DNA from: a virus
Lineage: Duplodnaviria > Caudoviricetes
Direction: 5' to 3' (one strand)
Length of the DNA stretch: 64,000 nt
Virus record (IMG/VR): IMGVR_UViG_3300008267_000189
Location: 581 to 64,580 of that record
The stretch's first letter is position 1; every line of letters starts with the position of its first letter. Under the pieces are notes generated by a model. That model ran no database searches. It worked only from the letters and a program-made list of their open reading frames with translations, and had not been told where the DNA came from. Shown piece after piece: positions 10,268-60,263 of this stretch. A program made the position numbers and the translations under genes.

Positions 10268-11140
10268 ATGGATAAATTAAAAATACCCTTTCCTCCCAAC
10301 CCTGATATTGGAATCAATCTGGATTCTCAGGATGAGTTTATTAAAAATAGAGGGGTAAATCTTGAACATTATGTAGCAATACCATCTCCAATAGGATTAA
10401 AAGATAGAGGAGATTACAGAAGAACAGACCAATACGATTCTATTTCTTCAAATGGAATGATTTACAAAAAAGCCGGATGTTTTACTGGTGTTATTGTTTC
10501 TAACTCAAAAAGAAAAACAACAGGAGAAGGTGGTATAATTGACCATTCTACTGCAAGACTTCTGTTGCCTAGATTTTATAACGATCAAAAAGAAATACAT
10601 CTTGCCCCTGGAGATAGGATTTTTATAAAAGACATAGATGTACTTGTGTCAAACTATCAAAGAATGCAATATGACCCGGGAAATTTTGATAGAGCGCAAT
10701 TTCCTATAAAATGTGTTGAACATTTAATAGACAGTCGAGGGTTAGAATACAAAGAAGGAGTACATTTTAAAATTCAGGATGGATATGTTGAATGGATTGA
10801 CGGGAAAGACAATCCGGGAATAGACCCCGATACCGGCAAGGGAAGAGTTTATTCAATAAGATATAAATACAATGCTCATTGGTATATAACCGAAATACCG
10901 AACGAAGTCCGAGTAGCGCAAACATTTGGATCTAATGGAGAAAAAACTGCAGAAAGAATGCAGTATTCTGCCATCATTCAAAGAGAATATGTTTATTATA
11001 ATCAAAATAATGATATTAATAAGGATTATGGAAAGGAAAAACTAATTAGAAATATAGAAGAACCAAAAGATCCTATCGATACCATTTATGAATACGAAGT
11101 AAAAGTCGATATGAACGATATAGGAGAACAAGATGAATAA
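10268..11140 (+). CDS. Putative neck/head-closure virion protein
   Basis: LAPGDRI and YKEGVHF..YSIRY motifs as in SPO1-like neck genes; gene context. Confidence 0.5.
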   Translation: MDKLKIPFPPNPDIGINLDSQDEFIKNRGVNLEHYVAIPSPIGLKDRGDYRRTDQYDSISSNGMIYKKAGCFTGVIVSNSKRKTTGEGGIIDHSTARLLLPRFYNDQKEIHLAPGDRIFIKDIDVLVSNYQRMQYDPGNFDRAQFPIKCVEHLIDSRGLEYKEGVHFKIQDGYVEWIDGKDNPGIDPDTGKGRVYSIRYKYNAHWYITEIPNEVRVAQTFGSNGEKTAERMQYSAIIQREYVYYNQNNDINKDYGKEKLIRNIEEPKDPIDTIYEYEVKVDMNDIGEQDE

Positions 11141-11525
11141 ATTTTTTAGAAGAAAAATCGATGGGAGATGTGTAGAAGATTCTCAAACGATTGATAATAT
11201 TGAACATAATTCGGAAGCAGGTGGTCAAAAAAATATGGAAGTAGGACCAGGACTGGTCTTTATAGGCGATGCTAGTTCTGAATTAATTGTGAATCCAGGA
11301 GATCAATTATTCTTTTTTAAATCCACCACAGGATTTGGTTGGGTTAAAATGTCAAAAACATCGGGAATAGGCGCTGTAGGATCGGTTCCTGCTGATGATA
11401 CTTTCCCAATTGAAGGAGAAGGATTTACCAGATATTCTGCGGTAGATTATAAGTATATAAAGGCAAGTTCTGGGGTTTACCTTTATGTTTTAAGGGATGA
11501 TAATCAGTTAAGGATTAATCCTTAA
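11133..11525 (+). CDS. Hypothetical structural protein
   Basis: Overlapping start, AGGAG RBS, beta-rich. Confidence 0.5.
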   Translation: MNKFFRRKIDGRCVEDSQTIDNIEHNSEAGGQKNMEVGPGLVFIGDASSELIVNPGDQLFFFKSTTGFGWVKMSKTSGIGAVGSVPADDTFPIEGEGFTRYSAVDYKYIKASSGVYLYVLRDDNQLRINP

Positions 11526-11539
11526 TAGGCGGCAATGAA

Positions 11540-11827
11540 ATGAGTTCTTCTAAAAAATTAGAGAATTTTCTAAAAAAATCAAAGAATGAGCAAAAAAAAG
11601 AGGCTCAAATAAAAAAGACAGAATGTATAAGCTGCGCAGATTGCGGTTTTAATTTATATGAAGGCGGAAAAAATTTAACATTATGCATTTGCTACGGCGA
11701 GGATTGGAATAAAAATATTAAAATTCAAAAGTCTGAAAACGCTATAAAAATGCAATTTCCTAAGACTATAGATCCAGAAAATATTGAGATGTTATTAAAT
11801 ACTTTAAAAAATATGAACAAGGAATAG
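11540..11827 (+). CDS. Zinc-ribbon protein (CADC...CIC)
   Basis: CxxC and CxC motifs. Confidence 0.5.
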   Translation: MSSSKKLENFLKKSKNEQKKEAQIKKTECISCADCGFNLYEGGKNLTLCICYGEDWNKNIKIQKSENAIKMQFPKTIDPENIEMLLNTLKNMNKE

Positions 11828-11829
11828 GT

Positions 11830-13623
11830 ATGAAAGAACAAATGACCTATGTAGCAATTGACGCTGACGATGTAGGAGAAAGTATCGGAGGAGCTGTGCT
11901 TTCTGATGATGCGAACAAACTCTCAACAATATCGGGGAAAATAAATACTGGCGTACAGATCTTTGCCAAGTGGGCGGAATATAATGGCGGATCTATAATA
12001 AGCAGTGGTAGCGATGAAGCTATTTTTCAAGTACCTTTAACTAGTATTGAAGAGTTAGAAGATTTGAAAAATAAATACCAAAACCATACCGGCTTTTCAG
12101 TTTCAATTGGTATTGGAGAAAAAATTTCTGATGCTGCAAAAGCTTTAATTTATGCTAAAGTAAATGGCAAAAATCAGATAGTTGATTATTCTCCTGAGAT
12201 AGAAGAAGTAATGAAACAATCTATTACAGGTAATTTAGATAAAATAAAACCAGAACAAAAATTAGAAGGTGGAATAGGGGACGAAACAGAAGAATCAGAC
12301 GTAGATGAAAATGAGTTCAAAACAGGTATTACAACTGAAAGAGAACATACTGAAGACGAGGATACAGCTGAAGAAATTGCTTTAGATCATCTTACAGAAG
12401 ATCCTGAGTATTATTCTAAACTTAAAGAAATGGAATCTAAAGACGAGCCAGATGAAGAATCAGATGAAGAATCAGATGAAGAATCAGATGAAGAATCAGA
12501 TGAAGAATCAGATGAAGAATCAGATGAAGAATCAGATGAAGAATCAGATGACTTGTCAAACTCAATAGCCATGGAAATGGAGCCTGATGAAGAATCAGAC
12601 GAAATGGGTCAGCAAGACTTGGATATCGATGGTCGTCCAGATATCCAGGAGGAACATGGAAAAATAAATCCCGAGCAGGATGACATAGACAAAGATGGGG
12701 ATGTTGAACATGAAGAAGCTATGGCTGTAGATGCTAACGAAGAAGATAGCTATAACGATGAAAATGATTTTGAAGATGAATATTTAGAATCAGATGAAGA
12801 ATCAGATGAAGAATCAGATGAAGAATCAGATGAAGAATCAGATGAAGAATCAGATGAAGAATCAGATGAAGAATCAGATGAAGAATCAGATGAAGAATCA
12901 GATGAAATGGATCAAGAAGATCTTACTGATGAATCTTTAAAACAAGCTATATTTGATAGTTTACAAATTTTTAAACAAAACAAAGATATTTTAACAGCTC
13001 TTGCCACAGAAAATCCAGATTTATATAATGCTCTTGTTGTTTCTTTACAATCAATGATAGAAATGGCAAAAGAACTTGGATATGGTGGGTATGAAGATGA
13101 TTCAAACCAAGGGATGGATGAAGATTTAAATCCGAACGATTTTGAAGTATTTGATGAGGAGTCTTCGCCAGATAATGCTGAAATGTCACAAGAAGAACTT
13201 TCTCCAGAAGATTTTGAAAAAAATGAAACCTTTTATAAATTAATAAATAAAATTAATACTGCAAAAAAAACTCTTGAGTTAAAAAAGAAAGAAGATAAGA
13301 AAAAAATGCTTTTAAAATTAAAACAAAAATTGAATAAGTTTAAAAGCAAAAATTTTCAACCCGGAAAAGATAAATCTAAATTTAAAGACAAAAAAAAGAA
13401 GGTTCCAAAACCTAAAAAAGTAGAAGCAGCGTCATTTTGTTCTTCCTCTAATCAAAAAATGAAAACATCTGGAAAAGATTGTAGAGCAAATGAGGATAAA
13501 GATTCTCCTGTATGTGCTGCAAGGAAAAAAATGAATTGCCGTGGCAAGAATGCCGAAAAAGGTTCTGCTATTCAAAAATCTGAAAAATTAAAGAAATTTT
13601 TGGAGAAAAAAAGAAAAAAGTAA
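11830..13623 (+). CDS. mCpol-like nucleotidyltransferase domain + DUF5661-like module + acidic repeats (putative internal head polyprotein)
   Basis: aa 1-120 YVAIDADDVG..LSDD..GGSIISSGSDE..SVSIGIG..ALIYAKVNGKNQI; then GITTEREHT..IALDHLTEDPEYYSKL. Confidence 0.75.
   Translation: MKEQMTYVAIDADDVGESIGGAVLSDDANKLSTISGKINTGVQIFAKWAEYNGGSIISSGSDEAIFQVPLTSIEELEDLKNKYQNHTGFSVSIGIGEKISDAAKALIYAKVNGKNQIVDYSPEIEEVMKQSITGNLDKIKPEQKLEGGIGDETEESDVDENEFKTGITTEREHTEDEDTAEEIALDHLTEDPEYYSKLKEMESKDEPDEESDEESDEESDEESDEESDEESDEESDEESDDLSNSIAMEMEPDEESDEMGQQDLDIDGRPDIQEEHGKINPEQDDIDKDGDVEHEEAMAVDANEEDSYNDENDFEDEYLESDEESDEESDEESDEESDEESDEESDEESDEESDEESDEMDQEDLTDESLKQAIFDSLQIFKQNKDILTALATENPDLYNALVVSLQSMIEMAKELGYGGYEDDSNQGMDEDLNPNDFEVFDEESSPDNAEMSQEELSPEDFEKNETFYKLINKINTAKKTLELKKKEDKKKMLLKLKQKLNKFKSKNFQPGKDKSKFKDKKKKVPKPKKVEAASFCSSSNQKMKTSGKDCRANEDKDSPVCAARKKMNCRGKNAEKGSAIQKSEKLKKFLEKKRKK
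12449..12551 (+). repeat. 12-nt tandem repeat CAGATGAAGAAT, about 8 copies (DEES)n
   Basis: Perfect in-frame repeat. Confidence 0.95.
12787..12906 (+). repeat. 12-nt tandem repeat GAATCAGATGAA, 10 copies
   Basis: Perfect in-frame repeat, same unit as at 12449. Confidence 0.95.
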
Positions 13624-13672
13624 CAGGGTCGCTAGATAAGACAAGTGGTGGACTACCGACCAAACAGACCAC
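13602..13672 (+). other. Candidate programmed -1 ribosomal frameshift signal
   Basis: GGAG 13602-05; A_AAA_AAG 13614-20 then TAA; stem GGTCG-C-TAG/CTA-C-CGACC 13627-13661. Confidence 0.55.
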
Positions 13673-13877
13673 AAAACATATCTCTAAACCCCATCATCAA
13701 GATGGGACTGTTAAAGGATATAAGATAAAAGATACAGATCCTTCAACAGGAAAGGCAAAATGGATTGACGGATCAAGGGGATTGGCCATGGACAATAGTG
13801 GGAATCCTGTAGCTCCTGAAGGGCAAAGTCCTGTGAAAGGAACTAAAAATAAACTTCCTCTTCCAGGTCTTGTATGA
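13620..13877 (+). CDS. -1 frame extension (85 aa, VTGSLDKTSGG...LPLPGLV) of the 11830 protein
   Basis: Open -1 frame with no start codon in its first 54 codons; fills the gap and ends in ATGA overlap with 13874. Confidence 0.65.
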   Translation, partial: VTGSLDKTSGGLPTKQTTKHISKPHHQDGTVKGYKIKDTDPSTGKAKWIDGSRGLAMDNSGNPVAPEGQSPVKGTKNKLPLPGLV

Positions 13878-14638
13878 TTTTAATTGATATAGAAATAGAA
13901 GGAAATTTAGAACAAGATATTGATAAAATAAAAAATAGCATTAGGGAAGATCTTAGACTTACAGTCAAGGCAATGGGTTCTAGTACATTAAAAAAAGCAG
14001 AAGAACTTGCTCAACAACATCTTTCTCCTAAACTTGCCACTATGTATAAAGCGGCTTTAAAAATAGAACAATTATCAGAAGATACTGTAATTATCGAACT
14101 GGATGAAAAAGCGATCTGGATAGAAAAAGGTCGTAAGGCAGGTTTTATGGAAGACCTTCTTAAATCAGGCACAAAAAAAGCTAAAGACGGTTCTAAATAT
14201 AGAATAATACCTGTGGGAGAATCGAAAAGATCTTCCCAACCAGCTTCAGTAGGAGAGAATCTTGTACCGGAAATAAAAACTTTTTTACAAAAAAAAGGCA
14301 TCAGAACGGGAAAAAATAATCTGGAATTGGATGATAACGGGAGTCCGAGGCTTGGTAAAATAAGTACTTTCAATATAAAAGATTTAAAAGATAAAAAACA
14401 ATTTTCTGATAATATATCTAGAATAAGTGTTTTTCAAAATAAAAACCCTAAAACAGGCGGGGTTGAAAAAAGTATAACGGCTTTTAGAGTTATATCAGAA
14501 AAACATAGAGGAACAGGAAAATGGGTCCATCCCGGAACTCCTCCTGTAAATATATTAGAAAAAGCTTTTAAATGGTCTGAACAATTGTGGGAAACAGAAT
14601 TATTCCCCGCAATGAAGTTAAGATATGAAGGTAAATAA
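13874..14638 (+). CDS. Putative neck/tail-completion protein
   Basis: WIEKG..FRVISE..WVHPG pattern; position before tail genes. Confidence 0.55.
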   Translation: MILIDIEIEGNLEQDIDKIKNSIREDLRLTVKAMGSSTLKKAEELAQQHLSPKLATMYKAALKIEQLSEDTVIIELDEKAIWIEKGRKAGFMEDLLKSGTKKAKDGSKYRIIPVGESKRSSQPASVGENLVPEIKTFLQKKGIRTGKNNLELDDNGSPRLGKISTFNIKDLKDKKQFSDNISRISVFQNKNPKTGGVEKSITAFRVISEKHRGTGKWVHPGTPPVNILEKAFKWSEQLWETELFPAMKLRYEGK

Positions 14639-15621
14639 TGTCAATATGGCAAGGTGATGTCTTTTTTAGACGAATTATAGAATTAATTTTAAGAGATATC
14701 AGACAGAACCCATGGCTGTTGGATGATATTCTTTCAGATTTTATTACAGATCCCATGCTTTCTGGAATATACGGACAAAAAGAAATTGAAAATGCAAAAA
14801 AATGGATTACAGAAAATGAAGTATCCGTTTTTTTACCACATAGAATGGATCTTGAAAAAATGCCCTGTATAACTATTGCTATAGGAAGCAATATGGAAGA
14901 CAGGAGTCTTGCTAGAATGGGAGATATGACCCATCTAGTAGAAACTTTACAACCAACCCAGATAGGCAAGGTTGTTCCTTATATAATACCTCCTTTTTAC
15001 TACACCTCTTACGATCAAGCAACAGGTTTTTTTGAAGTCCCCAGCTCAGTCGACTTGGTAATAATTCAACCTAATATGGCTGTTATAAATCCTCAAACTG
15101 GAGCCGGTTTTATTATTACTTCAAAAACTAATAATGGATTTTTTATTACCCCTGGTACTGCAATAAATTTTGAAGTTATAGCAGTAATTCCTGAATATCG
15201 AATATACAAAGCTAGAAGAGAAATTGCAACTTTTCAAGAAAATATCTCTATTGGATGCCACGTTCATGGTGACCCAAACGCCCTGCTATGGTTATATTCT
15301 GTAATGATGTACGGATTATTAAGATATAGAGAAGGGTTAATAGAAAGCAGAAATTTTCAAATATCAAATCTTACAACTACAGACATGATAAGGAATGATG
15401 CATTCCAGAGCTTTGGAGAAAACGTGTATAGTCGTTTTATAACCTTGACTGGTCAAGTAGAAAATACTTGGATTAAAGCTCCAAAGCGTATAATAGAAAC
15501 AATTAATATTATAAACGGGATAGATGCTGGGTTAATTATGATAAATAAAGATGGTGGGGAAGTTCCTGAAATTATTGATTCAGAAGAAGAGATATGGATA
15601 TCGAAAACTGATCCAGAATAA
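14638..15621 (+). CDS. Putative tail terminator/completion protein
   Basis: MPCITIAI motif; context upstream of sheath. Confidence 0.5.
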   Translation: MSIWQGDVFFRRIIELILRDIRQNPWLLDDILSDFITDPMLSGIYGQKEIENAKKWITENEVSVFLPHRMDLEKMPCITIAIGSNMEDRSLARMGDMTHLVETLQPTQIGKVVPYIIPPFYYTSYDQATGFFEVPSSVDLVIIQPNMAVINPQTGAGFIITSKTNNGFFITPGTAINFEVIAVIPEYRIYKARREIATFQENISIGCHVHGDPNALLWLYSVMMYGLLRYREGLIESRNFQISNLTTTDMIRNDAFQSFGENVYSRFITLTGQVENTWIKAPKRIIETINIINGIDAGLIMINKDGGEVPEIIDSEEEIWISKTDPE

Positions 15622-15641
15622 ATCTTTATATAGGGGTAAGT

Positions 15642-16292
15642 ATGGATAATTATTTAAAAGAAAAAGCTGATTTATTATTAAAATCTCTTTATAAAAATGT
15701 AAATAAATTGGGACACAAAAAAGATGCCATTGAAGACGTATTAGATTCTAATACAACAGCAGAAATGAGTCCGGATGATATTCCTGCAGGAAGCTCTAGT
15801 GCTTTAAATAAATCTAAAATGCAAAAAAAACAAAAAGTTATTGAAAAAACAAAAAATGTTCAAGATGTGAAAAAAAATGAAGAAATAGTTGAAAAACTTT
15901 TGAAAAATTTAGATGTAATTTCAAAAGCTTGTAAATCAAAAATGCAAAAAAGATGCTGGGAAGGTTATGAGTCGACTCCGGGTAAAAAGGCATATTCAGA
16001 AGGCTCTTGTCAACCTATCAAAAAAGAAGAAAAAGAGAAACCTTTTGTAGGATATAATAAAGAAAAGCACTCTAGAGAAGGTGGACTGAGCACAAAAGCC
16101 AGAGAAAAATACAATAAAGAACACGGTTCAAACTTACAAGCGCCTGTATCTTCTAAAGAAGCCAAAAAATCACCTAAAAAAGCAGCCAGAAGAAAATCTT
16201 TTTGTGCGAGGATGTCAGGGACAAAAGGAGCAACAAGCAAAGACGGTAAACTTACCCCAAAGGGTGCGGCGCTTAAAAGATGGGATTGTTAA
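15642..16292 (+). CDS. Modular putative internal head protein (CWxGY module + DUF6321-like module)
   Basis: CWEGYESTPGKKAYSEGSC; RRKSFCARMSG..ALKRWDC; late motif at 15621. Confidence 0.6.
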   Translation: MDNYLKEKADLLLKSLYKNVNKLGHKKDAIEDVLDSNTTAEMSPDDIPAGSSSALNKSKMQKKQKVIEKTKNVQDVKKNEEIVEKLLKNLDVISKACKSKMQKRCWEGYESTPGKKAYSEGSCQPIKKEEKEKPFVGYNKEKHSREGGLSTKAREKYNKEHGSNLQAPVSSKEAKKSPKKAARRKSFCARMSGTKGATSKDGKLTPKGAALKRWDC

Positions 16293-16375: not shown

Positions 16376-17071
16376 ATGTCTGACAAAAAAATGTTTACAG
16401 CAGAAGAAGTGGCCAGAATGATTCTGGACAAAGCTCATAATACATTAAAAAAACATGAAGAAACATTAAAAAAATCCAAAAATACTGCTCATGAAATTGA
16501 TGCAGGAGAAGAATTTAATAATGATGAGGCGGAATGTCCAGAGTCTTTAAAAGGCGAAGGAAATTCTGAAACTTCAAAAAATGAACCTAAAAAAGAAAAA
16601 TCTTCTGTTGCAGAAAATGAAGATTCTATGATGGAGGATGAGCCTTTAAGTGACGATGAATCAGAAGAAGATGAATCAGAAGAAGATGAATCAGAAGAAG
16701 ATGAATATGAATTTAAAAAATCTCAGTCTGGAATGCATACTGTAGAATACAAGAAATTAAAAAAATTCGGATCTCAGGGAGCACCTCTTGGATCAAATCT
16801 CGGAGCTTCAATAGCAGCAGGTATTCAGGGAGTTAAAAAAGATGAAAATTCTCCAGAAGCAAAAGAAAATCCTCAATATCATATAAGAGCTACACAAGAA
16901 GGTAAAGCTCCTAAAAAACCATGGACAACCGATACTAGGCGACATATAGATTATAGTAGAAGCGGAATGAAAGGTGCTAAATTATCCAGTCCAGAAGATC
17001 AAAAAAGATTTGAATCTGAAGCTAAAGAAAGATCAAAAAAGTTTAAAGAAGAAAGCAAAAAACAAGACTAG
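16376..17071 (+). CDS. Acidic/basic putative internal head protein
   Basis: Late motif at 16344; (DESEE)3 repeat; KS motifs. Confidence 0.55.
   Translation: MSDKKMFTAEEVARMILDKAHNTLKKHEETLKKSKNTAHEIDAGEEFNNDEAECPESLKGEGNSETSKNEPKKEKSSVAENEDSMMEDEPLSDDESEEDESEEDESEEDEYEFKKSQSGMHTVEYKKLKKFGSQGAPLGSNLGASIAAGIQGVKKDENSPEAKENPQYHIRATQEGKAPKKPWTTDTRRHIDYSRSGMKGAKLSSPEDQKRFESEAKERSKKFKEESKKQD
16655..16706 (+). repeat. 15-nt tandem repeat GATGAATCAGAAGAA x3
   Basis: Direct inspection. Confidence 0.9.
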
Positions 17072-17072
17072 T

Positions 17073-18638
17073 ATGGAAAAAGATAATAAAATTCAATATA
17101 AAATTCTTAAATCTGAGGCTTGCGGCCATACCATCGAGTACAGGATGGTAAAAAAAGAACATCAGCTTGAAAAAGCTCGTATTGACGAAGGATTGTCTCC
17201 TAGAGAAAAAATGAAAGCTCGTGAGGCAAGATCTTCTAAAGAAAAAGAGCCAAGAGAATTAAGTCCTGAGCAGTATGAAACTGGTAAAAAAATAGCCAGA
17301 ACTAAGGCTGTTACTGAAACAGGTGAAAAACAAAGAAAACAAACTCTTAAAGACGTTCTTCATACACACAAACAAAATATACCAAAATCTCCCTCAAAGG
17401 AAGATTTGGAATACCCTATGGCTGCCAGTGAAGAAGAATGTGAATGTGAAGATAAAACAAAAAAATGTGAATGTGAAGATAAAGAAATCAAAAAAAGAGA
17501 AAAGTTTTACATTCAAAAGATTCAAGAATTAAGGAAACAATCACAAATAGATGCTATAAGAGGAGATTTGCCTACTCAATTAACTCCTAGAGGAATGACA
17601 TTAAGAGGAACTCCACAACAAAGACAAGCTGCTGGAATTCCTAATTTTGTTAGCAACCCAGTTACAAATCGCACGGATTTGATAGGACCTAGTGGAAAAG
17701 GGGTATTACCTTCAGGACCCCGTTCTGATCAAGTATCTGCTATAAATAGATTTCAAGAAAATCAAAATGCAGAATATAATAGACCGGCAACTGCGTCGTA
17801 TATTAAAGACGGTGTAAGAAATTTGATTGCACCTGCAACAGCAGCACCTGCAACAGCAGCACCTGCAACAGCAGCACCTGCAACAGCAGCACCTGCAACA
17901 GCAGCACCTGCAACTGGTTCTGTTACAACTGCTCCTACATCACAAAGAATGCAATTTGGGAAAGATAGCGGCGTAAGTTTTAAAGATGCTTTTGCACAAG
18001 CTAGAAAATCAGGTAATCAAGAATTTGACTGGTATAATCCTAAAACAGGTAAAACGCAACCATATCATACCTATTCAAAAGAAGAATTTCAACAAGGGAA
18101 AACTCTTGCTGCTGGAAGAAATCCTGAAGGTTTTCAATCACAAGCTATAGGTACTGACAATAAATATTTCAAAGGTTGGCAAGCTCAACAAAAAGCCTCT
18201 ACTGGACAGCCTATTACCCCTGTTGCTGGACAAGCCCCTGTTGCTGGACAAGCCCCTGTTGCTGGACAAGCTCCTGTTGCTGGACAAGCTCCTGTCCCTA
18301 CTGCTGTGCCAGCTGCAAAAACACCAAATCCAAATGCAAATGTAACAGGAATGAATCCAGATGGATCTATTTCTTCAACAGAATCTGATGGAAGGAAAAC
18401 ATTAACTATGTCTCAGAATCCCGTACCAACGGCTCGTCCTGATCAAATGGGAATGGCACCAGCTCTAAATGAGCCGGGTAAAGTGGGAATGAAAATCCCT
18501 GGTGCCTCTGTTAAATATCCAGAAGCCGAAGGTTTTAAATTTGGAGATACAGCCACAACCCAAGCCCCTACAAGCGAGCAAACTGAGGGGAATCTAAATT
18601 ATAATAAAAATAATAAATTAAACTCTAGTATGGGCTAA
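17073..18638 (+). CDS. Low-complexity modular putative internal/ejection protein
   Basis: ATG at 17073 just after upstream TAG; SFKDAFAQARKSG..FDW..YHT module; Pro/Ala linkers. Confidence 0.6.
   Translation: MEKDNKIQYKILKSEACGHTIEYRMVKKEHQLEKARIDEGLSPREKMKAREARSSKEKEPRELSPEQYETGKKIARTKAVTETGEKQRKQTLKDVLHTHKQNIPKSPSKEDLEYPMAASEEECECEDKTKKCECEDKEIKKREKFYIQKIQELRKQSQIDAIRGDLPTQLTPRGMTLRGTPQQRQAAGIPNFVSNPVTNRTDLIGPSGKGVLPSGPRSDQVSAINRFQENQNAEYNRPATASYIKDGVRNLIAPATAAPATAAPATAAPATAAPATAAPATGSVTTAPTSQRMQFGKDSGVSFKDAFAQARKSGNQEFDWYNPKTGKTQPYHTYSKEEFQQGKTLAAGRNPEGFQSQAIGTDNKYFKGWQAQQKASTGQPITPVAGQAPVAGQAPVAGQAPVAGQAPVPTAVPAAKTPNPNANVTGMNPDGSISSTESDGRKTLTMSQNPVPTARPDQMGMAPALNEPGKVGMKIPGASVKYPEAEGFKFGDTATTQAPTSEQTEGNLNYNKNNKLNSSMG
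17829..17915 (+). repeat. 15-nt tandem repeat GCACCTGCAACAGCA x5 plus partial (APATA)
   Basis: Direct inspection. Confidence 0.95.
18219..18295 (+). repeat. 18-nt tandem repeat CCTGTTGCTGGACAAGCY x4 (PVAGQA)
   Basis: Direct inspection. Confidence 0.95.
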
Positions 18639-18865: not shown

Positions 18866-21037
18866 ATGGCACAACGATTAACTACTAGCTTTGTAAATAC
18901 CAACATCCCAGGTGCTTATCCAAGCGTGACGGTAAAATCAACCCCTGTAGGCATTTCAAGTACTGGTGATATTGTTATTATCGGAGAAGCCGAAGGCGGT
19001 GCTGATTTTACACAAGATCCACTTAAAGATAACTTTTTTACTGCTACTCAGTTAACTAGAGTAAGAGCAAAATATTTAAAAGGCCCAATCGTCGATGCTA
19101 TGGCTGCTCTTATTTCTCCAAGCAACGATACTAATATACAAGGATCAATCGGCAAAGTTTATATTGTTAAGACCAACGGTGGATCTAAAGCAAAAGCCAA
19201 TGTTCTTGGCGGATTTGATACGTATGGCATACTTAAAGATAAAAATTTTGGCGTTGATGGTAATAAGTATTTTTTTAAAATAACTCAAGCAGAAACCGAG
19301 GTTGCCCCTTCAATTACAGGTAATAGTTTAGCACCTTTTTCAGCCTCAAATTTTGATGACGTTTCTTTTAGTGTTAGATTAAACGGAGAAGCCATAACGA
19401 CCATTAACTTGGAAGTCGGATCTCATAACACTTTAGAAGATCTTGCAACTGAAATTAATTATAAACTCCCCACAGGATTAAGCTGTTCAGCAAATGTAGC
19501 TACTACATCGCTTGTTATATTTGTACAAGCTGACGCTCAGGCAAATGCGGCGGGATATGGTAAATCTTTTGAATTAGTAGATTCAACTCCAGGTGATTTA
19601 GAGTATATTGGCTTCAGTGAAGAGCTTGTTGTCTCTTCTCAAGAACCAGAAATTCAACTCACTATAAACAGACAAGATACCAATACAAACGAATCGTTTA
19701 TGATGGAAGCTCAGATAGCACTTACTGTTGGATATGATGGAACTAGTGCTGTTCTTTCAATTTCTGATGGAGTTCTTATGACTACAGTAGTCGGAGGGAC
19801 CGGTTCTAATCTTAGTATTACATTAAGTGAATTTACAACCATGTCAGATCTTGCTGCTTTTATAAATTCTCAAGAAGGATACTCAGCATCGTCTGTGGCT
19901 TCTTCAAATAATCTCAGTCCTTTAAAGCTTGATGAAGTTTCGGCTGTTGGAATCGCCACTTCAGGAGGATTTGAAGCCGGGAGAATTAAAAGAGCCGCTC
20001 ATAATTTTAAAACAAAAGTTGCAGAAAGTTCTGTTCTTGATTTTGAATCTCTGGTAGCAGCAGGTCTTCCTAGTGAAACAGTTACCTCTAAATTTCTTGG
20101 ATCTGAAAGTGAAGAATATAAAGGGAAAAAAGGTGCTACTACCGCTGCTGATATTGCAAATGCTATTCCTGCTTTAGAGGGTATTAAAGTTAATTTTGTT
20201 ATTCCTTTATTTTCTAGAGATGCTTCTGAAGATATAGCAGACGGATTAACCGATTCAAGTTCTACTTATACAATCGATGCTATTAATGCTCTTGTGAAAT
20301 CTCATGTTCTTGCCATGTCAACTCCTAAAATGAAAAGGAACAGAATGGCAATGCTTAGTAAACAAGCCAGTTACTCAGCTGTAAAAGCTGCCGCAGCTTC
20401 TTTGTCTAATTTTAGAGCTAGTATGTTTTTTCAAAAAACAAGTCAAGTCAATTCTGTTGGGGATGTTGTAGAATATCAACCATGGCATACCGCTTGTGTT
20501 GCAACAGGTATGCAATCTGCAGGATTTAATAAATCTCTTACTAATAAATTTGCTAATGTTATTAGTTTTAAAGATCCTTCAGGGTTTGATTCTGGCAATC
20601 CAGGTGATGTTGAGGATGCAATTGATGCAGGATTGTTCTTTATGCAACAAGAAACTGCAGGTAATAAATGGGTAGTCGATCAAACGACCTACGGATTTGA
20701 TACAAATTTTGTATACAATTCATTACAAGCCATATATATGGCAGATGTTCTTGCGATTCAGCTTTCTGAATCTCTTGAAAAATTTGCAGTAGGTCAATCG
20801 CTTGCAGATGTTACTTCCGCCGGTATTATTGCTTTTATTTCTAAAAAAATGGAAGAATATAGAAAACTAAAAATAATTGGCGCTTCAGACGATGCTCCTT
20901 TGGGGTATAAAAATGTCAGCGTTGTTATAAACGGTCCTATCGCAGAAGTTAAACTCGAAGCTAAACTTGCTACGGCAATCTTGTTCATACCTATTGAACT
21001 AGAATTGAGCCAGATCCAGTCTAGTGCATCAGCATAA
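18866..21037 (+). CDS. Contractile tail sheath protein
   Basis: IPGAYP..IIGEAEGG N-terminus and C-terminal sheath domain; followed by tube gene. Confidence 0.88.
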   Translation: MAQRLTTSFVNTNIPGAYPSVTVKSTPVGISSTGDIVIIGEAEGGADFTQDPLKDNFFTATQLTRVRAKYLKGPIVDAMAALISPSNDTNIQGSIGKVYIVKTNGGSKAKANVLGGFDTYGILKDKNFGVDGNKYFFKITQAETEVAPSITGNSLAPFSASNFDDVSFSVRLNGEAITTINLEVGSHNTLEDLATEINYKLPTGLSCSANVATTSLVIFVQADAQANAAGYGKSFELVDSTPGDLEYIGFSEELVVSSQEPEIQLTINRQDTNTNESFMMEAQIALTVGYDGTSAVLSISDGVLMTTVVGGTGSNLSITLSEFTTMSDLAAFINSQEGYSASSVASSNNLSPLKLDEVSAVGIATSGGFEAGRIKRAAHNFKTKVAESSVLDFESLVAAGLPSETVTSKFLGSESEEYKGKKGATTAADIANAIPALEGIKVNFVIPLFSRDASEDIADGLTDSSSTYTIDAINALVKSHVLAMSTPKMKRNRMAMLSKQASYSAVKAAAASLSNFRASMFFQKTSQVNSVGDVVEYQPWHTACVATGMQSAGFNKSLTNKFANVISFKDPSGFDSGNPGDVEDAIDAGLFFMQQETAGNKWVVDQTTYGFDTNFVYNSLQAIYMADVLAIQLSESLEKFAVGQSLADVTSAGIIAFISKKMEEYRKLKIIGASDDAPLGYKNVSVVINGPIAEVKLEAKLATAILFIPIELELSQIQSSASA

Positions 21038-21061: not shown

Positions 21062-21511
21062 ATGAGCGTAACAATGACAGGCGCACGAGCCAAGGTAAAG
21101 GTTAACGGACAATATGTAGGAGTTTTTGATTCCTGCTCATATGGAGGCCAGGTAGGTACAGAACCGATTCACACACTAGGTAGATATTCTCCTAATGAAA
21201 TTTCTATCACAAGTTATGAAGCTGTTCAGGTACAATGTGGGGGATTTAGGCTTATTGATCAAGGAGTGCACGTTCTTCCTGCTGCTCCAAAATTGCAGGA
21301 TCTTTTAAATTTTGAATCTATTCAATTAGAAGTTGAAGATAGACAGTCAGGGAAAACTCTTGCTATTGTTAAAAATTGTGTCCCTTCTAATTGGAGTGAA
21401 CAACAACAAGCAAAAGGTACTACAAAATTTAGCATCACCTATATTGGAACTGTTCTCAGTGATGAATCTGGCGATCAAGACGAAAGCTCAGGAGCTTCTA
21501 GTCTTCCTTAA
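21062..21511 (+). CDS. Tail tube protein
   Basis: 149 aa after sheath; TGARAKVKVNG..EPIHTLG. Confidence 0.8.
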   Translation: MSVTMTGARAKVKVNGQYVGVFDSCSYGGQVGTEPIHTLGRYSPNEISITSYEAVQVQCGGFRLIDQGVHVLPAAPKLQDLLNFESIQLEVEDRQSGKTLAIVKNCVPSNWSEQQQAKGTTKFSITYIGTVLSDESGDQDESSGASSLP

Positions 21512-24358: not shown

Positions 24359-26143
24359 ATGACTGTAAAAAAAGTAAAAAGTCCTGCTAAACTTTATTGT
24401 TCAAATTCCTCAATACTAAGAAGAATGACATCTGAGACTATGGACGAGATATCCAATATTGTCGGATCTAGCTATGGTCCAGGAGGAAAAACTACGCTTA
24501 TTGAAAGCGAGTATCCTGGAATTCCTAATAAAAACACAAAAGATGGGGTAACAATTTTTAAATCATTGGGATCTCAAGATCCCTATAAACATTTAATTAT
24601 TGAACAAACAAGAGATGCGGCCCAAAGAACAGCCAGCGAAGCAGGGGACGGAACGACTGCTACTACCATAATTTCTGCTCATCTTGTTAAATCTTTATTT
24701 AAATATTGCGAAGAAAACCCTAAAGAATCCCCTCAAAGAGCTACGAGAATTTTAGATAAAATAGTAAAAAAAGAACTTATTCCAGCCGTTAGAAAAGCTT
24801 CTATTCAAATCAATACAGATAACCAACATCTTCTTGAAAAGGTTGCCAAAGTTTCTGCTAATGGCGATGAAGAAATGGCCGAAGCGGTTATGAAAGCTTT
24901 TGATATTGTAGGATTTGGAGAGTCTTCGCACGTTACAATCCAGGAACTTTCAGGTCCAGGTGGTTACGAGGTAGATCTTATTGAGGGATATCCTATAGCA
25001 ATTGGTTTTGAAGAATCTATCGGTAAATTTCATACTGCTTTTATAAATGATAAAGCTAATCAAAGATGTAAATTAGATAAACCTTTATTTCTTCTTTATG
25101 ATGGAATAGTTAATGATTTAGTAACTTTCCTACCCTTAATAGATTCCTTAGGAAAAAAATATGTTCAAGAAGGGGATTCTGATTACTGCAATCTAGTTCT
25201 CGTAGCTCATGGATTTTCAGAAAATGTATTAACAACTCTTGCTTTTAATTTCTCAAATCCAACAACTTTAAATGTTGTTCCAATGGCAACTCCTATAACT
25301 AATCAAAAAAATTCTAGACTAGAATTTTTATATGATTTATCAGCTTTTGCAGGTGCTAAAATTTTTGATATGACCAACCAAGTATCGAAAGCCAGTCTGG
25401 AAGATTTAGGCGCAGGAATGGAATTGTTTGAATTTTACAGGTTTAGAGGGACGGTAGTAGGCCAACCAGACGAGATGGATATATCTGATCGTGCTGAAGA
25501 ACTAGAGCAGCAACTTAAAAATGCTGCAAGTATTTCTGAAAAACTTGATCTAGAAGAAAGGCTTGGAAAGTTAACAAATGGTATTGCAAAACTTAAAATA
25601 TATGGGGCATCTAATGGTGAACTTAAAGAAAGACATGATAGATGCGAAGATGCTGTTTGTGCCGTAAGAAGTGCTATTAAGCACGGCGCTCTTCCTGGAG
25701 GGTGTAGAGTTCTTGTTAATTTAGCATTAAAATTAAACTCTGAATATGAAGAAAGTCATAGAGATTATAATTTAGTACAAACAGTTTTGATAGAAAGTCT
25801 TATGGAGCCTTTAAGAAAACTTCTAGATAATGCAGGATATAATTCTGAAGAAATTCAAAAAATTATTACAGATTATTTTCTTGATACACAAAAAGTTTAT
25901 GATATAGAAAATATGGAATTTGGAGATCCTGAGGATTTGGGAATTTTTGATGCTTCTCAAGCAGTTATTCAAGCACTAGAAAATAGCGTATCAATCGCCA
26001 GTGTAATGGGTAATTTAGGCGGAATTGTTTGTTCTCCAAGAGATAACCAGCTTGAATTACAGGCATGGAAAGAAGAGCAAGATTTTAGAAGAGCTGTAGA
26101 TCATGCAGAAGAATTTATAAACGAAGCAGATGTAAGACCATAG
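24359..26143 (+). CDS. groEL: Phage chaperonin (GroEL-like)
   Basis: SYGPGG, TKDGVTI, EAGDGTTA, ERLGKL..G.A, LPGG motifs. Confidence 0.92.
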   Translation: MTVKKVKSPAKLYCSNSSILRRMTSETMDEISNIVGSSYGPGGKTTLIESEYPGIPNKNTKDGVTIFKSLGSQDPYKHLIIEQTRDAAQRTASEAGDGTTATTIISAHLVKSLFKYCEENPKESPQRATRILDKIVKKELIPAVRKASIQINTDNQHLLEKVAKVSANGDEEMAEAVMKAFDIVGFGESSHVTIQELSGPGGYEVDLIEGYPIAIGFEESIGKFHTAFINDKANQRCKLDKPLFLLYDGIVNDLVTFLPLIDSLGKKYVQEGDSDYCNLVLVAHGFSENVLTTLAFNFSNPTTLNVVPMATPITNQKNSRLEFLYDLSAFAGAKIFDMTNQVSKASLEDLGAGMELFEFYRFRGTVVGQPDEMDISDRAEELEQQLKNAASISEKLDLEERLGKLTNGIAKLKIYGASNGELKERHDRCEDAVCAVRSAIKHGALPGGCRVLVNLALKLNSEYEESHRDYNLVQTVLIESLMEPLRKLLDNAGYNSEEIQKIITDYFLDTQKVYDIENMEFGDPEDLGIFDASQAVIQALENSVSIASVMGNLGGIVCSPRDNQLELQAWKEEQDFRRAVDHAEEFINEADVRP

Positions 26144-26146
26144 TAA

Positions 26147-27982
26147 ATGTCTGAAGAATTAGAAAAATTAAAAACTGATCTTATTTTAAAACCCCTTAAT
26201 TCCGCTCAAGAATTAAGGGATTGGATGTATACGTATTTTGACATAAGATTCCCTATGGGTGTCGTATATCCAACATCTACCCACGGGCCGACCGAGGCTG
26301 CATGGCGTATATATGAATTGATCAAAACTGGACAGAGTAAAGATGTTCCTGAAATTGTCCTACTCTCTTCAAGAGATTCGTTTAAAACTTTGATTGCTTC
26401 TGCAATTGAAGTGCTGTGCCTAGTACATTTTAGGTTTAGTATCGCACATGCTGCCGCTATCCTTTCTCAATCTGAAAAAGCCGTGCAATATGCCAATTCT
26501 TTTTTTAATAAAATACAACCTTATTTAGAAAAAAATGGCTGGAAAAAAACATCAGATAGCAAAACAAAAATTGAATGGAGAACAGACGAAGGAGATAACA
26601 TATACCTCCGAGTTCTGGTTATGACTCGTCAAGGGATGAATAGTGAGCACTTGCCTATGCTCTTTATGGATGAAATTGATCTAATCCAAGACCCTAGAGC
26701 CTTAGAAGAAGCTAAGATGGTTCCCAGTATTTATAAAAAATATTTTCCTCTAACAATAGCTTTGTCTACACGCAAATATGCCGGTGGATTAATGGAAAAG
26801 AAGGTTCGGGAAGCGGAAAGATCTGGCGGAGAAGTATTAAGATGGAATATTATTGATATTACTGAAAGAATTACAAAAAATGAAGCTCGGGTAAATGAAC
26901 CCAAAATATCTCGGTATATTTCTAGGGAACTTCCTTTAAAAAATATATCTCCAGAAGAATTTGAAACATTGAATGATAAAGAAAAAACTAAATATGAAAA
27001 ATTTGATGCTTATGCAGGTGTAGCTGATCATCCCATGCTTTCTGTTATGAGAAATTATTTAGTGGACAGGCCTCAAACAGATGTGGGCGATTTATACAAA
27101 CCTGTTATTGCAGTAAGAAATAATTTTAAACAAACTTCTCCGGAAATGGGAGAAGCGCAATTATTGTGTAACAAACCCAGTTCTTCAGGACTCGTATATC
27201 CTAGGTTTAGTATTGTCGATAATTCTGTCAGCATTAACGAAGCTTATGGATATCTTTCAGGAGAAAAAGAATCATCCAGAACCTTGACAGAACTTGTAGA
27301 ATACATGCATAATCTAGGTATAGAATTTTACGGAGCAGCTGACTGGGGTAACACAGACGAGACTTCTTTAGGAGTATTTGCAAAATTAGCAGGAGGAATA
27401 ACTTGGTTTATAGATTTGCTTTCTGCTCCAGATATGGAAATACCTGAAATTAAAGAAAAAGTTAAAGATTTTACAGAAATGTATAGAATAAAAAAATGGT
27501 TTTGTGATTCTAACTATCCTGCTTATATAAAAATGTTAAAAAGAACTGATACTATATACGGTAAGATTCCTGCTGTCGGTGTTAAAAAAGGTGTAGAATC
27601 TGTAATAGACGGAATAACCTGCGTACAGTCTAGGATTGTTGACGCTAATAACACCAGGCATTTTAAAGTATTGAAACACCAAAGTACCGAAAGGGTTTTT
27701 GATGCATTTGAAACATATAAATGGAAACTTGACGGAAAGGGAAATCCTATAGACGGTAAACCAGAACACGGCAAAGACGGGGTTGCTGATATTATGGATA
27801 TGATACGATATTATTTCTTTAGTATGTTTGGAAAAGGTAAAAATGTTCTTTTTTCTTATGATTTAGAAAATTCTAACCAACAACCTACTAATTTAAAGAA
27901 TAAAATAACAGAATTAACAGGAAAAACTAATTCTAGTGTAAAAAAGTTAAGCAAAAATAAAGGGCTAGTGTGGGATATTTAA
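26147..27982 (+). CDS. terL: Terminase large subunit
   Basis: SRDSFKT Walker A, LFMDEID Walker B, AADWG nuclease motif, DIMDMIRY. Confidence 0.85.
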   Translation: MSEELEKLKTDLILKPLNSAQELRDWMYTYFDIRFPMGVVYPTSTHGPTEAAWRIYELIKTGQSKDVPEIVLLSSRDSFKTLIASAIEVLCLVHFRFSIAHAAAILSQSEKAVQYANSFFNKIQPYLEKNGWKKTSDSKTKIEWRTDEGDNIYLRVLVMTRQGMNSEHLPMLFMDEIDLIQDPRALEEAKMVPSIYKKYFPLTIALSTRKYAGGLMEKKVREAERSGGEVLRWNIIDITERITKNEARVNEPKISRYISRELPLKNISPEEFETLNDKEKTKYEKFDAYAGVADHPMLSVMRNYLVDRPQTDVGDLYKPVIAVRNNFKQTSPEMGEAQLLCNKPSSSGLVYPRFSIVDNSVSINEAYGYLSGEKESSRTLTELVEYMHNLGIEFYGAADWGNTDETSLGVFAKLAGGITWFIDLLSAPDMEIPEIKEKVKDFTEMYRIKKWFCDSNYPAYIKMLKRTDTIYGKIPAVGVKKGVESVIDGITCVQSRIVDANNTRHFKVLKHQSTERVFDAFETYKWKLDGKGNPIDGKPEHGKDGVADIMDMIRYYFFSMFGKGKNVLFSYDLENSNQQPTNLKNKITELTGKTNSSVKKLSKNKGLVWDI

Positions 27983-36479: not shown

Positions 36480-37457
36480 ATGAGAATGGTTTTAGTTACA
36501 TTGTTATTCATGCTTTTATTGCCAATGGCACATGCTAAAGAAATTGTTTTGACTCAAGATAATTCTGTAGTATTAAATGGTGCTTTTACTTCACAATCTG
36601 TCTCAAAATTGATTGGAGAAGTAAAAAAACTAGATGCAGAATTAAAGAGTGGATATCCAATTTATTTATTTTTAAACACGCCAGGGGGAAGTATTCAAGC
36701 GGGTTTAGAATTTTTTGAATTTATAAAAGGAGTAAACAGACCTGTTCATACTATTACTCTTTTTGCGGCCTCTATGGGATTTCAAACAGTCCAACACTTA
36801 AGAACTAGATACATACTGGAATATGGGGTTTTAATGAGCCATAAGGCCTCTGGTGGTTTTGAAGGAGAGTTTGGAGGGGAGTCAAGTCAATTAGATTCTC
36901 AATACGGCCTATGGCTGAGAAGACTTAAAATGATGGATGCAAAAACTGTTGAGCGTACAAAAGGTAAAAAAACTCTTAAACAATATCAAGCAGAGTATGA
37001 CAACGAACTATGGCTCAATGGTGCGGAAGCTGTTAAAAACGGATATGCTGACGAGGTAGTTGCGGTTAAATGCTCAGGTGCTCTTCAAGGAGAAAGAGAA
37101 GAAATAGTCGGGTTTATGGGAATGAGAGTAAGGGTGGTTTTTGATAAATGTCCAATTAGAACAGGTCCCATCTCTGTTTCTGTAATGGTTAGAACAAACA
37201 AAGGACTTGTAACTCTTGATCAATTTGTTGATAAAGGTGGAAATTTTGATACTGAAAATTGTCAAAAAACATCAACCCCTCAGTATGATTGGTCAGGCCG
37301 CATGGTCACCTCTGGTCAAGAATCTGAATTATGCGCCCTTGATAAGGGGATGAGTCTTGAAAAGGCTGAACAAATTGTAGAAGAATATAAAAATAAAAAC
37401 TTGATTAAAAACAAAAAAGTTATTAAAATGAGTTTTGGAAGCTTTGTTTCGGAATAA
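36480..37457 (+). CDS. ClpP-like serine protease with N-terminal signal peptide
   Basis: MRMVLVTLLFMLLLPMAHA/K; LNTPGGS, AASMG, MSH, EAVKNGYAD. Confidence 0.8.
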   Translation: MRMVLVTLLFMLLLPMAHAKEIVLTQDNSVVLNGAFTSQSVSKLIGEVKKLDAELKSGYPIYLFLNTPGGSIQAGLEFFEFIKGVNRPVHTITLFAASMGFQTVQHLRTRYILEYGVLMSHKASGGFEGEFGGESSQLDSQYGLWLRRLKMMDAKTVERTKGKKTLKQYQAEYDNELWLNGAEAVKNGYADEVVAVKCSGALQGEREEIVGFMGMRVRVVFDKCPIRTGPISVSVMVRTNKGLVTLDQFVDKGGNFDTENCQKTSTPQYDWSGRMVTSGQESELCALDKGMSLEKAEQIVEEYKNKNLIKNKKVIKMSFGSFVSE

Positions 37458-59546: not shown

Positions 59547-60263
59547 ATGAGTGATGATTTAGATGTTTATCATAAATTTAAAAAAGATGACGTTGACCAG
59601 TTTATGGACAATCACATCTACCTCCCTACTAGAACCATTTATATGGGCAGTATGAGCAGTTCTGACGATGAAGGAGAAAGCGGCACAGATTACTACATGG
59701 CTGAAACTGTTGTCAAAGCCCTGCACATTCTGGATAATCAAGATGCTGTTTCTATGAAAGGTGAAAAGCCTATCAATATTATAATGAATAATGTAGGGGG
59801 AGAGATCTATCACGGAATGGCTATTTATGATGCTGTTGCAAATTGTAAAAATCATGTTACAATAAGAGTATACGGACATGCAATGTCGATGGGGTCTGTG
59901 ATTTTGCAATCGGCTGATCATAGAGTTATGACAAGACATTCAAGAATAATGATACATTACGGAACCTTTGGTATGCATCAACATACTAAAATTGTTTATA
60001 AATGGGCAAATGAAACAAAAAAATTTGATCAATTAATGGAAGATATATATCTCGATAAAATTAATAATAGAAAAATAACTTTAGAGAAATATCTTACACT
60101 GATTGGCAAGGAATCAGAAATCCCTCAAGGTAATGCAAAAAATAAAAAAATAGCAATTGGAAGAAAAGAACTTCAAGAAATGCTTAATTTTGATACTATA
60201 ATAGATGCGGATACTGCCTTGGAACTTAATTTGATCGATAAAATAGAGGATAAAAATGTCTGA
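59547..60263 (+). CDS. clpP: ClpP-like protease (cytoplasmic)
   Basis: MNNVGGE, AMSMG, IMIH, ALELNLIDKI. Confidence 0.85.
   Translation: MSDDLDVYHKFKKDDVDQFMDNHIYLPTRTIYMGSMSSSDDEGESGTDYYMAETVVKALHILDNQDAVSMKGEKPINIIMNNVGGEIYHGMAIYDAVANCKNHVTIRVYGHAMSMGSVILQSADHRVMTRHSRIMIHYGTFGMHQHTKIVYKWANETKKFDQLMEDIYLDKINNRKITLEKYLTLIGKESEIPQGNAKNKKIAIGRKELQEMLNFDTIIDADTALELNLIDKIEDKNV

Follow-up and report, generated by a model that had tools for sequence, protein, structure and literature searches.

Probable programmed -1 ribosomal frameshifting at the 3' end of an mCpol-domain gene in an uncultured phage

Introduction

Why does the mCpol-domain gene of an uncultured phage stop directly behind a slippery heptamer, and what is encoded between this stop and the next gene? 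The gene is located on a 64,000-nucleotide (nt) stretch of DNA, hereafter called the window, which corresponds to the bases 581-64580 of the 64,580-bp uncultured virus record IMGVR_UViG_3300008267_000189 (completeness estimate of 40%). Its open reading frame (ORF; 11830-13623; this ORF, the elements of the frameshift site and the next gene are on the + strand) encodes a protein of 597 amino acids (aa), named P0001, with the C-terminal end ...KFLEKKRKK. A first inspection of the window, the sequence-only reading, had proposed a programmed -1 frameshift at this end of the gene, giving isoforms of 597 and 682 aa. The comparison of loci presented here strongly supports this proposal, and we assign a probability of about 0.88 to programmed -1 ribosomal frameshifting as the source of the two isoforms of this mCpol-domain protein.

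Results

Organization of the frameshift site

The 0-frame ORF ends with TTG GAG AAA AAA AGA AAA AAG TAA. These codons contain the slippery heptamer A_AAA_AAG (13614-13620), placed in the X_XXY_YYZ phase of the 0 frame and directly followed by the stop codon TAA (13621-13623). A Shine-Dalgarno-like GGAG (13602-13605) is located 8 nt before the heptamer and 9 nt before the P-site codon. Upstream, a TGA (13581-13583) closes the -1 frame; the extension (13620-13877) then comprises 85 codons (13620-13874; VTGSLDK...LPLPGLV) and the stop codon TGA (13875-13877). Its first ATG, GTG or TTG is the TTG at 13782, which is codon 55. The extension's TGA overlaps, as ATGA, the start codon of the next gene (13874-14638; 254 aa, phrog_16819, function unassigned). 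Between 13623 and 13874, the 0 frame leaves a gap of 250 nt that is the sole long gap in the operon, the other junctions being overlapping or at most 20 nt apart. The elements listed by the sequence-only reading, including the downstream stem and the GTGGT/ACCAC pair discussed below, are all located where that reading had placed them.

The heptamer alone is not beyond chance in a window with a GC content of 33%: AAAAAAG occurs in 83 copies on the + strand, 12 of which are in phase inside + strand ORFs, and its significance comes from its conservation. Among these 12 copies, the one at 13614 is alone in being placed at a 0-frame stop, and the -1 frame stays open after it for 85 codons, versus 1-43 for the other 11. 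According to PMC4066793, C_CC.A_AA.G, G_GG.A_AA.G and A_AA.A_AA.G are the most efficient -1 motifs when combined with the IS911/IS3 stimulators in E. coli, a species that may not be the host of this phage.

The split gene is conserved in related phages

Viral and metagenome contigs were searched with the 85-aa peptide, which detected 3 and 6 loci, respectively, i.e. six distinct sequences in addition to the window (L002, L003, L004 = L013, L009, L010 = L011 = L012 and L014). A repeat of the contig scan with the alignment A2 recovered only the three contigs of the first scan. The peptides of these close loci are 58-84% identical to that of the window. The heptamer A_AAA_AAG is present in the same phase of the 0 frame in all seven close distinct loci, and the 0-frame stop follows after zero or one codon (TAA, TAG, AAT TAG, AAC TAG). 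In all of them a -1 stop is found 3-45 nt upstream of the heptamer, and the first ATG, GTG or TTG of the extension does not occur before its codon 54-84. The overlap of the two open frames is reduced in L002 and L010 to about 10-13 nt, in essence the heptamer itself, and the site of the shift is therefore pinned. The ATGA overlap with the next gene is found in five of the seven (the window, L002, L003, L009 and L010) and becomes GTGA in L004; the extension of L014 ends with TAA, without overlap. When the viral contigs were scanned with the 254-aa product of the next gene, the L002 contig was the only match.

Five further loci were obtained with a 9-row profile. One of them (L029) is continuous, and the four others are frameshifted and represent three distinct sequences (peptide identity of 39-46% in the more distant loci). 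L028 carries C_CCA_AAA (1492-1498) with the stop one codon later, L032 carries C_CCA_AAC (1471-1477) with a TAA at once, and L030 (= L031) carries A_AAA_AAG (1492-1498 in L030) with the stop four codons later. Ten distinct loci thus display a slippery heptamer in the same phase, with a 0-frame stop 0-4 codons on, and a stem of the type found in the window is present downstream in nine of them. Since L028 and L032 use other heptamers and L030 uses another hairpin, the frameshift signal is seen to turn over around a fixed junction.

The -1 frame encodes the C-terminal part of the same protein

The -1 frame is protein-coding and under strong purifying selection. The ratio of non-synonymous to synonymous substitution rates (dN/dS) of the -1 peptide, calculated on codons 19-80, ranges from 0.024 to 0.191 in 13 of 21 pairs, the other 8 pairs being saturated in dS; these low values indicate that the extension is not a decaying remnant. 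Its conserved core reads ...LPTKQTTKH..PHH.EGTVKGYKIKD.D..TGKAKWID.SRGLA.D. In the AlphaFold2 model built from a 20-row alignment (predicted local distance difference test 67, predicted template modelling score 0.36), the only structured element is a beta-hairpin made of residues 35-39 and 46-50, and the tail is predicted to be basic and largely unstructured, with this conserved beta-hairpin motif. No Pfam family matches the extension of the window, and a single match of chance level was found among 20 relatives. The extension has no match in PHROGs, and its best match in the ESM Atlas (0.85) concerns unnamed clusters and is below the meaningful level.

The origin of this peptide is clarified by homologues in which the gene is in one frame. 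An extension profile (A3) was compared with 1.84 billion representatives and retrieved 23 proteins at E<=0.001. In five of them, all long proteins, the domain occupies the extreme C-terminal end (P0011, 720 aa; P0014, 606 aa; P0019, 385 aa; P0021, 561 aa; P0023, 724 aa), of which P0011, P0014 and P0023 begin with an mCpol domain like P0001. The other matches are a continuous 137-aa fragment (P0005), two giant proteins matched on a short part of the profile, and sequences of 31-91 aa. A search with the residues 375-597 of P0001 gave 28 proteins. Eighteen of these end with [RG]KK plus zero or one residue, and the ten others read on in frame (...FLKKKD..LEKS.L.TKQTT...) into the extension domain. 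A continuous homologue of 468 aa (WNM70340.1, annotated as hypothetical) is likewise encoded by the cultured Myxococcus phage Mx1. It ends ...HHVYPVGTAKDGKVKVSHVDPATG... and is devoid of the downstream stem, and the gene order of Mx1 up to the sheath gene is that of the window. The continuous homologues, which carry it fused in frame, demonstrate that the -1 peptide belongs to the same protein as its C-terminal part. The sequence-only reading had considered that continuous homologues without the slippery site would speak against a frameshift. Such homologues exist in part of the family, yet they support the frameshift, because they show what the -1 peptide is.

The continuous DNA loci are L017-L020 (one lineage), L021, L022 and L029. 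They possess neither the stem nor the ACCAC element of the frameshifted loci: the Thr-Thr codons are ACA ACA and not ACC ACA, Leu is encoded by TTG and not by CTA, and the duplex energies are only -3.4 to -6.5 kcal/mol. No comparable stem was found in four loci with a continuous ORF. In a 30-row tree, from which the fragments P0035, P0041 and P0021 are omitted, the frameshift state requires four changes, of which the starred branches force only one. The window is included in a starred clade of 13 rows that are all frameshifted; the distant outgroups are continuous and the root is weak.

Three AT-rich continuous lineages display a run T5A10 at the homologous FLKKK junction (L017:4394-4408, L021:4808-4822 and L022:4457-4471). 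Runs of at least 10 A are absent from the 64-kb window and occur 1, 1 and 2 times in L017, L021 and L022 (about 6 kb each). At the T5A10 junction, both alternative frames stop within 1-10 codons. These continuous forms may use polymerase slippage to produce a truncated isoform; alternatively, the frameshifted class may have arisen from an indel in T5A10.

RNA structure downstream of the heptamer

A stem, S1 (13627-13661), begins 6 nt after the heptamer. It is composed of GGUCG-C-UAG (13627-13635) and CUA-C-CGACC (13653-13661), with eight standard pairs, a C.C mismatch and a 17-nt loop. Within this loop, GUGGU (13645-13649) could pair with ACCAC (13668-13672) in a candidate helix S2 (13645-13672) that would complete an H-type pseudoknot. 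The alignment of the seven close sequences (A4) reveals that 90.5% of the S1 cells are paired; for S1 and S2 together the value is 93.9%, versus 15-53% when the partners are slid by 1-3 columns. S1 displays one double change from G-C to A-U (L014), and its C.C mismatch is replaced by U-G in L004 and by G-C in L028. The energies are -6.1 to -12.5 kcal/mol for S1 alone and -4.6 to -5.7 kcal/mol for S2.

In the distant loci, L028 has a perfect 9-bp stem (-16.2 kcal/mol), the mismatch being now G-C and one U-A now U-G. The outer helix of S1 is represented in L032 by GGUGG/CCACC, or by a 6-bp alternative register. L030 possesses its own hairpin GGGGC-8nt-GCCCC, 5 nt downstream. The stems of L032 and L030 were judged by anchored duplex folding, as the MAFFT alignment A8 misplaces their 5' arm, and their pairs were not counted in that alignment. 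The duplex energies from anchored folding are -8.2 to -16.2 kcal/mol for nine of the ten frameshifted loci and -6.6 kcal/mol, in another register, for L030.

A constraint acting on the RNA is revealed by the synonymous sites. Where an invariant residue has a four-fold-degenerate codon, the third base never changes in 5 of 7 cases within codons 3-18 of the extension, versus 0 of 14 cases within codons 19-85 (p=0.001, Fisher test). When all degenerate residues are considered, the values are 5 of 10 and 2 of 27, respectively (p=0.009). The synonymous sites are therefore frozen only over the region of the hairpin and pseudoknot, which represents a constraint at the level of the RNA. Concerning S2, its five pairs are invariant in all seven close loci, and the codons xGT GGT and ACC that contain them are kept despite residue changes among S, R and G; L030 has kept ACCAC and not GTGGT.

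Several observations weigh against this interpretation of the signal. The covariation measures of the seven closest sequences are equalled by 62 of 500 shuffles and are not significant alone, and additional support is limited to 2-3 loci that are more distant. The energy of the nested fold is similar to that of shuffles in six of the seven sequences (z from +0.17 to -0.89; -0.79 for the 60 nt of the window), L004 being the only outlier (z = -3.89). Helix S2 shows no covariation, and the two elements in their GTGGT/ACCAC form occur together in neither L028 nor L032. The local hairpin that replaces S1 in L030 is a different one, and L032 permits two pairing registers. Finally, the GGAG is conserved in only two of the seven close distinct loci (the window and L003), the others having GGAA, GGAA, AGAG, GAGC or no such element. 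A comparison of the region 13500-13800 with Rfam gave no family at E<=1. In RNA folding, which the sequence-only reading had suggested as a check, S1 is part of the minimum-free-energy fold in five of the seven sequences, with z-scores that are unremarkable in six. Of the pseudoknot that was also proposed there, the invariance of GTGGT/ACCAC in the seven closest loci stands, and the lack of covariation and the loss of this form in L028 and L032 count against it; a real S2 is plausible, with roughly even odds.

Proposed mechanism and alternative explanations

According to the proposed mechanism, ribosomes that translate AGA AAA AAG would carry Lys-tRNAs at AAA in the P site and at AAG in the A site when they meet the hairpin 13627-13661, located 6 nt downstream. 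This hairpin, possibly extended to an H-type pseudoknot with ACCAC 13668-13672, would resist unwinding, and in a fraction of the ribosomes both tRNAs would move back by one base and pair with A AAA AA. The slipped ribosomes would continue from GTA (13620) through 85 codons to the TGA 13875-13877 and produce 682 aa, whereas the ribosomes that do not slip would terminate immediately at the TAA 13621 and produce 597 aa. The long form would thereby gain a basic tail that is the ordinary in-frame C-terminus in other phage lineages. That ribosomes slip here rather than RNA polymerase, the efficiency of the shift and the role of the tail are all inferred.

A shift of polymerase would lead to the same protein. 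If RNA polymerase added one A in the A6 run (A7 in the window), a subset of the mRNA would encode the 682 aa; the shift site is indeed a homopolymer run, and one extra A yields an identical product. In addition, the T5A10 found at the same site in continuous homologues has a length at which bacterial polymerases slip, PMC5009743 mentioning slippage "on runs of 9 As or Ts". Nevertheless, only A6 is conserved in the frameshifted class, five of the six other close loci have an interruption in the run that corresponds to the window's upstream A7 (L009 has A9), and the heptamers C_CCA_AAA and C_CCA_AAC of distant loci hold only 3-4 A. The conserved hairpin, the frozen synonymous sites and the 6-nt spacing have moreover the look of a ribosomal stimulator, so that transcriptional slippage is quite unlikely as the source of the long form in the window. 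The possibility that the 85 codons constitute a separate small gene, with a non-canonical start codon or with reinitiation following termination at the TAA 13621, is lower still. Gene callers do list stand-alone "proteins" of 31-91 aa for the extension domain in metagenomes, and the ATGA overlap at the end of the frame is typical of coupled genes. Against this, no ATG, GTG or TTG precedes the conserved core in any of the seven close loci, and the codons 1-2 of the extension vary (GTA/GAA; ACA/TTA/CTA/AAA/GAA/GAT) without any of them being a start codon. Furthermore, the domain is covalently C-terminal in 10 of the 28 homologues and in Mx1, and a separate gene leaves the conserved phase of the heptamer unexplained; we regard this explanation as very unlikely.

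Homopolymer runs are also error-prone, and continuous homologues exist, so the split might be thought to result from an assembly indel in the A runs or from a real frameshift mutation followed by a dying remnant. This is almost certainly wrong. Ten distinct loci, which come from different samples and are saturated in their synonymous divergence, display the same split, and the dN/dS of 0.02-0.19 of the -1 peptide rules out a decaying remnant. At the locus itself, the contigs of the runs X2, X4 and X6 (three studies, X2 being possibly the source sample) span 13566-13837 without indel. The X4 contigs differ from the window by six substitutions over the 801 nt compared, of which four are found on the site-bridging contig. 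This comparison was made on contigs and is blind to rare variants, and the run X5 has no cover over 13624-13812; none of the runs listed as containing the stretch is an RNA run. Programmed ribosomal frameshifting thus remains by far the preferred explanation of the locus.

Properties of the 0-frame protein

The mCpol domain (PF18182) is located at the residues 7-120 of P0001 (E=1.4e-18; 67.7 bits for a cut-off of 26.4; full profile 1-114), and a DUF5661 domain (PF18905) at the residues 158-204 (E=2.5e-13). The N-terminal domain also matches the mCpol chains of the PDB entries 9nwn (1.5e-10) and 9mnr (3.8e-10). The protein further contains two long acidic tracts of ESDE repeats, a conserved helical segment and a basic tract with a four-cysteine motif.

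The DNA coding for mCpol (11830-12249) contains the motifs AIDADDVG and GSDEA, which we take to be the catalytic motifs of mCpol, its cyclase activity being a prediction; no effector gene is recognisable beside it. The tandem acidic tracts ESDE(E) are encoded at about 12440-12920; the homologues of the close set have 571-624 aa, and their differences in length apparently come from the ESDE repeats. The basic C-terminal tract (13432-13551) contains the motif SFC...GKDCR...SP.C.AR.K.NCRGKN, which is possibly a metal-binding knuckle; its cysteines C537, C551, C562 and C570 are strictly conserved among 23 aligned homologues.

The sequence-only reading had called the gene product a head protein and a polyprotein, names that the present results do not support. 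P0001 has no match in PHROGs and matches only mCpol and DUF5661 in Pfam, with no capsid, scaffold, protease or chaperone family, and the gene is positioned outside the head genes: the portal, large terminase and protease-like genes sit elsewhere in the window, away from it. Among cultured phages, the DNA 11000-15700 gave just a 69-nt low-complexity match, corresponding to a piece of the acidic repeats, in two records of one Vibrio phage (DUF2213 gene). A tblastn search of cultured phages with P0001 gave two matches only, to Mx1 (mCpol domain, 22% identity) and to one uncultured phage.

Genomic setting

The window, from an uncultured freshwater phage, contains genes similar to those of tail sheath, GroEL, large terminase, portal and protease, together with many replication genes (Pfam and PHROGs), which identifies the phage as a large contractile-tailed one. 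The mCpol gene belongs to a cluster of virion genes, upstream of a terminator-like gene (14638-15621) and of the tail sheath gene (18866-21037), in the same order as in the phage Mx1; the sheath gene is followed by a tube-like gene (21062-21511). Upstream of the sheath gene, an ORF of 554 aa (16974-18638) has a match to the Pfam Cementoin repeat (E=7.5e-9, residues 416-441), probably because this virion protein has a repeat of low complexity. This ORF overlaps the preceding one by about 100 nt, and its GTG start is doubtful. A GroEL-like chaperonin gene (24359-26143; phrog_5725, E=1e-87) lies immediately 5' of the large terminase gene (26147-27982). Two genes similar to head maturation proteases (phrog_94) are located at 36480-37457 (E=2e-14) and 59547-60263 (E=1.5e-29), far apart and with replication genes between them.

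Discussion

The locus represents a well-supported conserved recoding site beyond the loci usual in phages, namely the tail chaperone and the capsid of T7 type. The gene family is annotated as "hypothetical" everywhere, and gene callers truncate it, leaving a 250-nt "gap" or a spurious small ORF. It also constitutes a natural experiment, in which one protein occurs in frameshifted as well as fused versions and only the former possess the RNA stimulator.

As for the role of the tail, our guess is that it might serve as a docking peptide, through which part of the protein molecules would be attached to a partner located in the particle or involved in its assembly. A wider scenario can be built on this guess, which we consider unlikely. 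The frameshift would be a dosing device for an enzyme borne by the particle: the tail would dock a set minority of the mCpol carrier in the virion or on an assembly partner, and the majority would stay free in the cell. There, an active mCpol could make signal nucleotides of the Panoptes type and silence the host guard. The continuous lineages would reach the same two forms in reverse, by polymerase slippage on T5A10. If this were true, two recoding mechanisms would serve one conserved pair of isoforms.

Comparison with known systems

The mechanism proposed here is a textbook one, known from dnaX, IS3/IS911, T7 10A/10B and lambda G/GT, and the gene family is not described as using it. A literature search on recoding in the mCpol/DUF5661 family, limited to main texts, found none, and the genome announcement of Mx1 (PMC10720576) contains neither "frameshift" nor "mCpol".

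The closest signals are those of dnaX and of the IS3 elements, and the sequence-only reading had assigned the site to a dnaX/IS3-type architecture. In E. coli, the dnaX gene produces two products, tau and gamma, from one message by means of A_AAA_AAG and a stable stem-loop a few nt downstream, and its signal includes an upstream Shine-Dalgarno-like element. The likeness to dnaX (mentioned in PMC5009743) consists of the same heptamer and a downstream stem, and this part of the assignment holds. The three-part dnaX signal does not, as the Shine-Dalgarno-like element is part of the signal of dnaX whereas GGAG is present here in a minority of the close loci. The outcome is also opposite: in dnaX the shift leads to a near-immediate stop and a shorter product, whereas here termination is immediate for ribosomes that do not shift, and those that do make the longer product. 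The orfA-orfAB frameshift of IS3/IS911 uses A_AAA_AAG (or a heptamer of the C_CCA_AAG type) and a pseudoknot or structured stimulator downstream; the locus shares the heptamer, a downstream structure and a shifted product that is a long fusion. The IS product is, however, a transposase, which P0001 is not; the overlap of the frames is minimal here, with the stop right after the heptamer, and the pseudoknot is a candidate without Rfam match.

With regard to phage genes, the late gene 10 of T7 and T3 (10A/10B) undergoes a -1 shift near its 3' end, by which a minority of the product acquires a short extension at the C-terminus. The likeness lies in this position of the shift and in the short extension that it adds (the T7 site is given as G_GU... 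in PMC5009743). Gene 10 encodes the major capsid protein and uses another heptamer, whereas the gene studied here encodes an acidic mCpol-domain protein without match to a capsid family. Lambda-type phages have a conserved -1 frameshift in the morphogenesis operon (G/GT), whose long form gains a C-terminal module. The lambda site is placed between the tube and tape-measure genes, whereas the present site lies upstream of the terminator-like and sheath genes, in a gene without match to a chaperone family.

The N-terminal 120 aa of P0001 resemble OptS/mCpol of the bacterial Panoptes system (PF18182; PDB 9mnr and 9nwn). The mCpol enzymes of bacteria are stand-alone proteins of about 125-131 aa encoded beside a membrane effector, according to PMC12657218 and PMC12657230; phage-encoded mCpol is not mentioned in the passages of the Panoptes papers that were consulted. 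In contrast to these stand-alone enzymes, the phage domain heads a protein of 597/682 aa encoded among virion genes, and no adjacent effector was seen. mCpol is the synthase of the Panoptes guard, and the way in which the phage isoforms are made and placed bears on any test of the use that a phage makes of such an enzyme.

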